A stretch of 64,000 nt of DNA from Promethearchaeota archaeon (GCA_048939625.1 JBHLPH010000003.1:64001-128000); one strand, 5' to 3'; counted from the stretch's first letter, positions 10,594-12,756 are shown. Numbers and translations: made by a program. Notes: a model not told the origin generated them from the sequence alone.

Positions 10594-10902
10594 ATGTCAG
10601 AAATTTGTCCTATTTGCAGTTTGCCTAAAGAAATTTGTCGCTGCCAAGAATTGGCGAAGACCGAGCAGCGAATTAAAGTAAGCGTTGAAAGACGAAAATG
10701 GGGACGAGAAGTCACCCTTATCGAAGGCATTAACAGCCGAGACATCTCACTATCTGAGCTAGTCACAAAACTCAAAATGAAATGTGCCTGCGGAGGTAGT
10801 GCAAAGGAAGGCATCATCGTCCTTCAGGGAGACCATCGCCATCATATCAAAAACATATTAGGCGATCTTGGATTCCCTGCTGACAACGTCGACATCGCTT
10901 AA
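10594..10902 (+). CDS. Translation initiation factor aIF1 (SUI1)
   Basis: CPICSLPKEIC, RRKWGREVTLIEG, LKMKCACGG, LQGDHR. Confidence 0.95.
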   Translation: MSEICPICSLPKEICRCQELAKTEQRIKVSVERRKWGREVTLIEGINSRDISLSELVTKLKMKCACGGSAKEGIIVLQGDHRHHIKNILGDLGFPADNVDIA

Positions 10903-11062
10903 TACTGCAAGTCTCTCTGCCAATCTTGATAAGATTCCAAGTTTGCCACTGGCAAACGAAAAAGAGAGGACCGTATAAACTGCGGTTTCTATCCTTCAAG
11001 GCTGAGAGGAAACCTTTTTGTGGAAGCACTCGTTTCAACCTTTCTCCGTGCCGGGGCACCGT

Positions 11063-11217
11063 GCCGGGATTATGCTGGTAATTCCTTACCGGCTCCCGAA
11101 GGTGTAAACTGGTATTTGCCCAGGCGCAATGGTAGCATTGAAGCCTGTGGAATCCCATTTGTCCAGGTGGGATGCAGAAAGCTTTAGGTCGGGGTTCGAA
11201 TCCCTGTCCCGGCACCA
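11063..11217 (+). tRNA. tRNA-His(GUG) with three introns: exons 11063-11070, 11101-11107, 11130-11150, 11180-11217; CCA encoded
   Basis: The spliced sequence GCCGGGA TG GTGT AATGGTA GCAT T GAAGC CTGTGGA GCTTT AGGT CGGGG TTCGAAT CCCTG TCCCGGC A CCA folds as a 74-nt cloverleaf. Each intron has a BHB-like junction. Confidence 0.9.
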
Positions 11218-11262
11218 TTTTTCAATCCAAAGGAGGATAATAGATAGAAATTCGAATACGAG

Positions 11263-12756
11263 TTGAAAAACATGAAACGTGGAAAAGAGCTAGCCGTAGG
11301 TGGGTTTCGCGACTACTACCCAGAGCTTTACCAGAAAATCGATGTAATATTGCGCGCCTTCCGTGAAATCCCTAAGCTCTTCGGATATATCGAATACGAA
11401 TGCCCAACGGTAGAACCTCTGGAATTATACGAATTGAAATCGGGACCTTCCCTCGTTGAAGAAACTTTCAAAGTAACTGATCGGAAGAAGCGACGACTTG
11501 TATTACGTCCAGAAACCACACCGTCGTTAGCGAGGATGCTTGCAGTTCAACAACAAAATTATCCACGTCCCATCCGATGGTTTTCCATTTCACGTGTATT
11601 TCGAGACGAAACTCTACAACGAGGACGCGTCAAGGAATTTTGGCAATTAAACGTTGACATACTGGGTACAGAGGACGTCTCCGCTGATGCAGAAGTGATT
11701 AATGTTCTTGCAGCCATCATTCTGAGCTTAAACTTCACACCTGAAGACTTTGTTATTCGAATTAATGATCGCCGGCTCATCCAGAGCTTCATCGAATCCC
11801 TAGGTCTGCCAAATTATGTTGAGATTATCCGAGTGTTAGATCGTCGTGAAAAACTCTTACAAGAAACTCTCATTACTAAACTTACAAAGGCGGGTACCCC
11901 ACCAAAAAAAGCGGAAGAAATCGCACTCAAACTCCGTCATTTCTTTGTTGGTAAGCAGAAAGATATACCCAAACTTCCTCGCACAAAGCAAATAGAAGAA
12001 TTGAAAAAACAGCTTCCACGTCTTCAACGCGACGCACTAATGAAAACCTTATCTGATGCAGGTGTCCCTCAAGATGCTGCCCAACAACTCACAGATTTCT
12101 CAGCTATTCGAGGAACCCCAAAGGAGTTTCTTCAAAGAATGAAAGAGGTCAAACTAGATGAAGCTACAAAGAAAGCCTTAGAACCCCTTAGACAGCTAGC
12201 AGAACAGTTCGAAGATTTAGGATTAACGGAAGTCTGCGAATTCGATGCCGGAATTGCCCGGGGCCTTGATTACTATACAGGAATCGTCTTTGAAGCTTGG
12301 GATCGAAGTAGTGAATTACCTCGTGCAATTGCAGGAGGAGGTCGTTATGATGACCTTGTTGGCATTTTTGAGGGACAGCGCTTGCCAGGTACTGGATTTG
12401 GTTTTGGTGAGACTGTTATCATGGAGCTTGCTGAGGAAATGGGCATACTCTCACCACCTCCTCCACCAGCAGAAGTTTATCTCGCTCCTGTCTCCAAAAA
12501 GCAACTAAGCGTTTGTCGAGAAATTGCCACACAGCTTCGAGCAGCAGGAATCCGAACCATTTTCAATGGTTTCTCATGGTCCTTGTCTAAGCGTCTCGAT
12601 GATGCCAGTAAAAGACAGGTACCACTCGCCGCAATTGTCGGACCGCGCGAGCTTGAGCAAAAATCAGTAAATGTCCGAAATATGAAAAGCGGGAAAGAGA
12701 AAATTGTGAAAATAAGTGCCCTTGCAGACTATGTTAAAAGTACTCTGGATTCCTAA
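11263..12756 (+). CDS. hisS: Histidine--tRNA ligase with enlarged insertion domain
   Basis: GFRDYYP, LRPETT, FRDE..QRGR..EFWQ, RGLDYYTG, AGGGRYD, C-terminal anticodon-binding domain. Confidence 0.96.
   Translation: MKNMKRGKELAVGGFRDYYPELYQKIDVILRAFREIPKLFGYIEYECPTVEPLELYELKSGPSLVEETFKVTDRKKRRLVLRPETTPSLARMLAVQQQNYPRPIRWFSISRVFRDETLQRGRVKEFWQLNVDILGTEDVSADAEVINVLAAIILSLNFTPEDFVIRINDRRLIQSFIESLGLPNYVEIIRVLDRREKLLQETLITKLTKAGTPPKKAEEIALKLRHFFVGKQKDIPKLPRTKQIEELKKQLPRLQRDALMKTLSDAGVPQDAAQQLTDFSAIRGTPKEFLQRMKEVKLDEATKKALEPLRQLAEQFEDLGLTEVCEFDAGIARGLDYYTGIVFEAWDRSSELPRAIAGGGRYDDLVGIFEGQRLPGTGFGFGETVIMELAEEMGILSPPPPPAEVYLAPVSKKQLSVCREIATQLRAAGIRTIFNGFSWSLSKRLDDASKRQVPLAAIVGPRELEQKSVNVRNMKSGKEKIVKISALADYVKSTLDS

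Follow-up and report, generated by a model that had tools for sequence, protein, structure and literature searches.

tRNA genes interrupted by three introns were first described in the Thermoproteales (PMC4390854), and in some multi-intron genes the introns lie so close to each other that one of them may need to be removed first (PMC8450103). The text of a review (PMC4090602) names 3/4, 20/21, 22/23, 25/26, 29/30, 30/31, 45/46, 53/54, 56/57 and 59/60 as sites of such introns. Heavily interrupted tRNA genes are also known from the Asgard archaea. In three complete genomes of this group 92-95% of the tRNA genes contain introns, the number listed for a single gene reaching four (PMC11291895, 2024), and a tRNA-His with three introns is listed there for Atabeyarchaeia-1 (PMC11291895, Supplementary Data 4). 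A census of 90 genomes in a recent preprint (Goswami et al. 2026; 10.64898/2026.10.13.758758) gives, for three Asgard families, a mean of 2.2 intervening sequences per gene and a maximum of five. The same preprint reports that introns in the D-arm are often missed by tRNAscan-SE and leaves open the route by which the introns arrived.

The window analysed here, a stretch of DNA of 64,000 nt, contains at 11063-11217 on the plus strand what is very probably a functional tRNA-His(GUG) gene of a Hermodarchaeia archaeon, with three introns that would be excised by the tRNA splicing endonuclease EndA and exons that would be joined by RtcB. The homologues of the histidyl-tRNA synthetase (HisRS) encoded by the flanking gene come from Candidatus Hermodarchaeota/Hermodarchaeum (64-81% identity), which places the host among the Asgard archaea (Hermodarchaeia) and not in the Thermoproteales. 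Its metagenome-assembled genome, G000, comprises 2.31 Mb in 83 contigs with 44.6% G+C and is 87.6% complete. The preliminary description of the locus had considered triple-intron tRNAs to be rare and described mainly in Thermoproteales; this picture is outdated, given that the host is an Asgard archaeon and that Asgard tRNA genes with three to five introns have been published (PMC11291895; 10.64898/2026.10.13.758758).

With the Asgard sets of these two studies (PMC11291895; 10.64898/2026.10.13.758758) the locus shares the phylum, the presence of several short bulge-helix-bulge (BHB) introns per gene, many of them in the D-arm, the failure of annotation programs to find such genes and the possession of two EndA paralogues. 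It departs from the preprint (10.64898/2026.10.13.758758) in that 'Hermod' is absent from the latter, where the few 'acceptor stem and junction' introns are lumped as 'other', and neither study discusses leader copies or the site 8/9 specifically. The Thermoproteales genes, as the 2007/2008 work is recounted in the review text (PMC4090602), are similar in carrying up to three BHB or relaxed-BHB introns per gene that depend on an (alpha-beta)2 EndA with the specificity loop; they differ in belonging to another phylum, and the site 8/9 is absent from those named in the review text, the full catalogues lying outside the search. As in the 3/4 introns of Thermoproteales (Sugahara 2008, via PMC4090602), one splice motif is drawn from the 5' acceptor strand and is incompatible with the mature stem, but here, unlike in those introns, the site is 8/9, just beyond the acceptor stem. 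The gene is thus a well-documented new example of a kind of heavily interrupted Asgard tRNA gene that is already known. Its four exons (8, 7, 21 and 38 nt) and three introns are arranged as follows:

11063-11070, plus strand: exon 1, tRNA positions 1-8, GCCGGGAT (in RNA form GCCGGGAU), invariant in 16 of 16 orthologues
11071-11100, plus strand: predicted intron 1, 30 nt, site 8/9, relaxed BHB (HBh', weak outer helix)
11101-11107, plus strand: exon 2, GGTGTAA (GGUGUAA), a 7-nt micro-exon, tRNA positions 9-15, invariant in 12 congeneric loci
11108-11129, plus strand: predicted intron 2, 22 nt, site 15/16, HBh' type, without exon-side helix
11130-11150, plus strand: exon 3, tRNA positions 16-37, with the anticodon GUG at 11147-11149 (ARAGORN); 1 of 21 columns variable
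11151-11179, plus strand: predicted intron 3, 29 nt, canonical 37/38 site, strict hBHBh'
11180-11217, plus strand: exon 4, tRNA positions 38-76, with A73 and an encoded CCA (11215-11217); 1 of 38 columns variable

When the exons are joined at the cuts originally proposed, the resulting 74 nt are called by ARAGORN as tRNA-His(gtg), a clean class I cloverleaf with a GUG anticodon, and the exons are 95% identical to the tRNA-His genes of the sister genus. The claim that this is a tRNA-His gene whose introns fall at 8/9, 15/16 and 37/38, and one of whose exons measures 7 nt, is supported by the spliced cloverleaf, with which the intron-less alleles described below agree. Carrying predicted EndA-type introns at 8/9, 15/16 and 37/38, that is at least two in one gene and at least one of them non-canonical, the locus is a multiple-intron tRNA gene. 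The expectation that standard finders would overlook it was correct for the two used here: on the unspliced window ARAGORN reports 0 tRNA genes and Rfam no tRNA at its gathering score, the best sub-threshold Rfam match to the locus reaching 20.1 bits against a cut-off of 29 and having a wrong 5' half. An ORF on the minus strand (10847-11218) that overlaps the gene is without a family match and was treated as spurious.

A brute-force combination of BHB removal with ARAGORN accepts 8 different tRNA-His parses of this locus, so that motif and cloverleaf do not define a unique solution and it is the comparative data that select the parse given above. The same combination, when applied as a genome-wide census of interrupted tRNAs, was set aside as unspecific, with the 8 parses for the His locus and 100 for a Leu locus. 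When 40 related genomes were searched, 12 members of the same genus proved to have the locus in full (82-96% identity), and the complete family loci, from two genera, numbered 16; a 17th, L007, ends at a contig edge. The 12 congeneric genomes keep all three introns, and in them 2 of the 74 exon columns are variable as against 53 of the 86 intron columns, with intron 1 showing variation in 27 of 32 alignment columns (84%). Among the sister-genus alleles L016 and L017 have only intron 2, L014 has introns 2 and 3 and L015 has introns 1 and 2. Intron 1 is missing exactly at the predicted joint in L014, L016 and L017, exon 1 there directly abutting exon 2, and intron 3 is likewise missing exactly at its joint in L015, L016 and L017; as a consequence GCCGGGAT/GGTGTAA and CCTGTGG/AGCTTT occur as contiguous sequences in natural alleles. 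Intron 2 is present in 16 of 16 complete family loci, and in L007 as far as the contig reaches. The intron-less tRNA-His of G080, from another Asgard family, spans the joints 8/9 and 15/16 as TGGTGTAATGGTA / GGTGGTGTAATGGTAACAT, which confirms the joint 15/16, where every family member has an intron. In this way natural sequence variation establishes the exon/intron boundaries, the constraint on the exons and the covariation in the intron helices. At the site 37/38 L014 (genome G015) has an unrelated intron sequence of 31 nt, and G016, G017 and G018 have none; the different intron in G015 suggests turnover or independent gain there.

The same alleles bear on two other ways of parsing the gene, one with a single long intron (11071-11120) beside the canonical one and a D-stem in which GCGC (11124-11127) replaces GUGU, the other with intron 2 shifted to 11114-11135. 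ARAGORN accepts their products (76 and 74 nt) as tRNA-His, both have 4/4 central helices, GCGC is the D-stem of the sub-threshold Rfam alignment, and the ends of intron 2 mimic the adjacent exons (GGCGCAA against GGTGTAA and ACTGGTA against ATGGTA). Such a parse is nevertheless very unlikely, given that GCCGGGAT and GGTGTAA are contiguous in the three alleles lacking intron 1, that the intron-less G080 tRNA-His has GTGTAATGGTA, that the change of GCGC to GCAC in G008 and G016, although favourable to pairing with GUGU, would disrupt a GCGC/GCAU D-stem, and that no central helix is left to the shifted intron 2 in L017, in which exon 3 begins TGGC. The likeness of the intron 2 ends to exons 2 and 3 (11101-11135) may reflect an origin by local duplication.

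In an archaeal BHB four exon bases ending two before the 5' cut pair with four intron bases ending two before the 3' cut. A scan for this motif in G000 recovers all three introns of the noted parse, with 4/4 central pairs in each, and inner flanking helices of 8, 4 and 7 bp are found in introns 1, 2 and 3 respectively. Intron 1 has the central helix C3-G6/CCCG, a 3' bulge AA|G and an inner hairpin of 8 bp; its 5' side forms the 3-nt bulge AU|U only on condition that intron A2 pairs with the U preceding CCCG, and is otherwise a 5x1 loop. This single A-U pair is missing in some orthologues, leaving a 5x1 loop and no clean 3-nt 5' bulge there, and on account of this possible loop on the 5' side the motif is classed as relaxed. 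In intron 2 GUGU pairs with GCGC (two G-U pairs), with bulges AA|A and AA|U and an inner helix CUGG/CCAG but no outer helix, and in intron 3 CUGU pairs with GCAG, with bulges GG|A and AA|A, a 7-bp inner helix and the anticodon stem as outer helix. Introns 2 and 3 have exact 3-nt bulges, and the predicted cut positions follow from the intron-less alleles. Of the motifs as originally described, the coordinates, the central helices and the bulges of introns 2 and 3 therefore stand, and the 5' bulge AT^T of intron 1 is conditional on one A-U pair.

Across the 12 orthologues the central helices of introns 1, 2 and 3 are paired in 100%, 100% and 95.8% of alignment cells, and for the proposed helices taken together 96.4% of cells pair, as opposed to 36-45% with slid partners (12-sequence alignment). 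Changes on both sides are seen at 10 pairs, 8 of them in the intron 1 hairpin, a number equalled in 0 of 500 shuffles. In the inner hairpin of intron 1 8 of 9 pairs have both-side changes; in the central helix of intron 2 a G-to-A change in G008 and G016 turns U-G into U-A, the inner helix CUGG/CCAG being invariant; and in the 7-bp inner helix of intron 3 pairing amounts to 94%, both partners having changed at 2 pairs.

The gene is set between elements that are themselves conserved, and is followed by the gene for its cognate synthetase:

11010-11023, plus strand: A/T-rich box AAACCTTTTTGTGG, which may serve the tRNA-His transcript as an archaeal promoter (BRE/TATA-like)
11218-11222, plus strand: T-run TTTTT, a likely transcription terminator, invariant in 12 congeneric loci
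11272-12756, plus strand: HisRS gene, with Pfam matches to tRNA-synt_His (171 bits) and HGTP_anticodon

The A/T-rich box is conserved as AAAGSTTTTTGTG in 16 of 16 orthologous loci. A CRISPR-DR43-like Rfam match (10985-11013; 16.7 bits, E 7.3) overlapping it was treated as a chance match. The HisRS gene lies 54 nt downstream of the tRNA-His gene on the same strand, and this pairing is kept in 15 Hermodarchaeia loci (L033-L047); a HisRS-anchored search in Heimdall-type genomes found no tRNA-His upstream of HisRS. The upstream neighbors of the tRNA-His gene encode SUI1 and an ArsA/Get3-like ATPase.

No other tRNA-His was found in the 87.6%-complete G000 by ARAGORN with introns allowed, the Rfam tRNA model or BLAST with the mature sequence, and in the genus relatives BLAST with the mature sequence found a tRNA-His at this locus only. 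G000 has 17 tRNA loci above the Rfam cut-off and 26 by ARAGORN, some of the latter doubtful, and many of its tRNA genes are probably hidden by non-canonical introns. Histidine decoding would hence seem to be missing from an annotation unless such genes are resolved manually or by comparison.

The base G-1 is the usual identity element of tRNA-His and is either encoded or added by Thg1. Position -1 (11062) is a T here and an A in G008, so that G-1 is not encoded, and all family members have A73 (11214) as discriminator. Searches for Thg1 (PF04446) gave no match in G000 and six further family genomes, and found it in 12 of 61 Asgard genomes. From this combination it would seem that the tRNA-His either lacks G-1 or receives it from an unrecognised enzyme. 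The lack of an encoded G-1 and of a detected Thg1, together with an unspliced Rfam score of 20.1 bits and a genome completeness that leaves room for a second, intact tRNA-His, is what one might expect if the locus were a decaying or non-functional relic and histidine were decoded by another gene that is unassembled. Such a state of affairs is highly improbable, however: the exons are near-invariant in 16 genomes of two genera while the introns diverge, conservation extends to the CCA, to the promoter-like box and to the terminator, and no other tRNA-His was found in the 13 other genomes of the genus that were searched.

The complement of splicing enzymes fits a functional gene with non-canonical introns. 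Two matches to PF01974 identify two EndA paralogues in G000. The first, EndA alpha, can be aligned along its entire length to the EndA catalytic subunit from Aeropyrum pernix (3P1Z_B, 163 bits), keeps the Tyr/His/Lys triad and has a loop IRKPK aligned to EKPRG, with a Lys matching Lys44 of the broad-specificity loop. The second, EndA beta, encoded on contig C46, has T/A in place of the catalytic His and looks like a structural subunit. Judged by these residues, G000 is predicted to have an EndA of the two-subunit broad-specificity (alpha-beta)2 type, with one catalytic and one structural paralogue, and Asgard archaea have been reported to possess (alpha-beta)2 EndA bearing the specificity loop (PMC5829648). 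A broad-specificity EndA, which such introns had been said to need, thus appears to be encoded by the genome, in the form of an alpha subunit with triad and loop Lys and a beta subunit without the catalytic His. RtcB is present as well (570 bits). The genes for the EndA catalytic subunit (C38:8416-8976) and RtcB (C38:132107-133417) share a contig with the tRNA-His gene, lying about 66 kb upstream and about 57 kb downstream of it.

The leader of the gene has a peculiarity of its own in that it contains a second version of the acceptor strand, with a further segment that could engage exon 2:

11048-11056, plus strand: leader copy of the 5' acceptor strand, GU-GCCGGGG (GCCGGGG at 11050-11056), a proposed placeholder ('decoy') for the 3' acceptor strand
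11056-11060, plus strand: leader segment GCACC, complementary to exon 2 (GGUGU)

The copy lies in the first unit of a 13-nt tandem duplication (11046-11058 / 11059-11071; CCGTGCCGGGGCA / CCGTGCCGGGATT) and matches exon 1 in 6 of 7 positions at -13, the best upstream match of 24 other G000 tRNA genes to their own acceptor strand being 3-5 of 7. It is found in all carriers of intron 1 and is absent from L014, L016 and L017, which lack that intron. A spacing of 36 nt separates the A/T-rich box from the copy downstream of it here, and the same spacing separates the box from G1 in L016, which lacks intron 1; in all three intron-1-less alleles the distance from G1 to the box equals that from copy to box here. 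By its flanks and this distance the upstream copy (11050-11056) occupies the place of G1 of the intron-less alleles, the tRNA-Leu of G002 shows the same correspondence between G1 and an upstream copy, and positions 3-6 of the copy could make the same central helix; one might accordingly ask if it is the true exon 1, with an intron 1 of 43 nt that includes the second copy. We hold this to be extremely improbable, since the downstream GCCGGGAT is invariant in 16 of 16 loci, whereas the upstream copy varies at positions 3 and 7 and has C or A in place of U8 at position 8. With a C and not a U at this position, and a 1-nt deletion in one orthologue, the leader copy is not the exon.

Being drawn from acceptor positions 3-6, the central helix of intron 1 is incompatible with the acceptor stem. 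The leader copy in turn can pair with the 3' acceptor strand (11207-11215), with a predicted pairing probability of 0.89. In the fold model the intron 1 central helix has a probability of 0.0-0.23 without the leader versus 0.90-0.99 with it in 9 of 12 orthologues; no gain in this helix from the leader is predicted for two His orthologues (G002 and G005) and for all Leu orthologues. According to the energy model the copy prevails over the true acceptor stem, and does so even after splicing. The variation in this helix is all on the leader side, and the copy thus shows no true, two-sided covariation because its partner strand never varies. Between the segment GCACC and exon 2, 98.3% of cells are paired among the 12 orthologues, three leader-side changes preserving the pairing, and this pairing is present in the minimum-energy fold of leader plus precursor. 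Speculatively, it might act as an outer helix or as a clamp that holds the 7-nt exon.

The site 8/9 is not confined to this gene and recurs in two others. One is the tRNA-Leu(CAA) gene of G000 (C42:40408-40594; L089/L090), in which removal of four candidate introns leaves a clean 88-nt cloverleaf:

C42:40416-40436: candidate intron at 8/9, 21 nt
C42:40462-40491: candidate intron
C42:40499-40519: candidate intron
C42:40551-40577: candidate intron in the T-loop

Its leader copy, GCGGGGG at -42, matches in 7 of 7 positions and is followed by a covarying hairpin; the copy is invariant in 12 carrier genomes, and G002 (L101) has neither the 8/9 intron nor the copy. The other is the tRNA-His of a different Asgard family (L082, G025:C78), with a 22-nt 8/9 intron with CGGG/CCCG and a second intron near 30/31. 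In this G025 gene G-1 is encoded and position 73 is a C, and its leader contains two copies (GCCGGGA at -22 and GCCGGGG at -13). Every gene with an 8/9 intron that was examined therefore carries a leader copy, and the intron-less alleles are without it. Two genome scans for further 8/9 introns, combining acceptor complement, CCA and BHB, gave 655 and 239 matches that were mostly chance or ordinary tRNAs, and 3'-half BLAST matches in other Asgard families proved to be other tRNAs.

These observations lead us to propose, tentatively and with confidence not far short of even, that introns that borrow the 5' acceptor strand, such as those at 8/9, come with a helper in cis: the leader copy would pair with the 3' end of the tRNA and free the real strand for the EndA signal. 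A literature search found no published account of a spare acceptor strand encoded in the leader. The nearest parallel is in the split and permuted tRNAs of Nanoarchaeum, Caldivirga and Thermofilum (PMC3218864, PMC4033280), where pairing by sequences that are not part of the mature tRNA likewise serves to present the EndA substrate or to stabilise it. In those genes the BHB itself is built from the additional sequences, either between two transcripts or across the permuted ends, whereas in the present case the leader would imitate a strand of an exon that belongs to the same transcript.

The copy could also be a neutral scar of the arrival of intron 1, left for instance by the 13-nt tandem duplication or by an insertion that brought a second 5' end with it, with no role in splicing; this is an appreciable possibility, though one we would rate distinctly below even. 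The form of the tandem repeat (11046-11058 / 11059-11071) is what such an event would leave, the intron-less alleles are flanked like the upstream copy, the variation is one-sided only, and the fold model gives no benefit for Leu or for two His orthologues. A scar would on the other hand be expected to decay like intron 1 with its 84% of variable columns, and yet pairing of the His copy with the 3' acceptor strand is kept in 99.1% of cells, no change is seen in the Leu copy GCGGGGG among the 12 carriers while the bases just 5' of it vary at nearly every column, and a copy at -13 is also present in the G025 tRNA-His.

In the pathway that we envisage for the tRNA-His gene, the conserved upstream box would drive a single precursor transcript with a short leader, in which a heterotetrameric (alpha-beta)2 EndA would cut the three BHBs, relaxed at 8/9, HBh' at 15/16 and strict at 37/38. 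RtcB would then ligate the four exons of 8, 7, 21 and 38 nt, and RNase P would trim the leader to give the 74-nt tRNA with its encoded CCA. During splicing of intron 1 the spare 5' acceptor strand of the leader would hold the 3' acceptor strand, and intron 1 would be removed before 5' trimming. That EndA cuts at these motifs, that the steps follow in this order and that the leader plays such a part are all inferred from sequence.

The three central helices use different nucleotides and could therefore form together. Overlaps are confined to exon-2 positions 10-13, which belong to the intron 2 central helix and for which the leader helix and the weak optional outer helix of intron 1 (positions 10-13 with G-2 to C2) compete. 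These overlaps in exon 2 are compatible with a possible ordered splicing, as suggested in the preliminary description. The energy model almost never predicts the central helices of introns 2 and 3 in any intermediate, and is for this reason uninformative on the splicing order.

The interest of the gene lies in its rare 8/9 site, in the clean gain/loss polymorphism among its relatives and in the leader copy as a possible helper. With introns 1 and 3 polymorphic for presence and absence and intron 2 retained, the family offers a compact natural series for the gain and loss of tRNA introns, and does so within the Asgard archaea, the closest prokaryotic relatives of eukaryotes. With regard to mechanism, the leader copy affords a cheap test of the way in which EndA is offered a splice motif that is in competition with the acceptor stem. 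If it does act as a helper, splicing would be tied to a step that precedes trimming by RNase P, and the tandem duplication, uniting decoy and exon, would be a footprint of how such introns are gained or kept.
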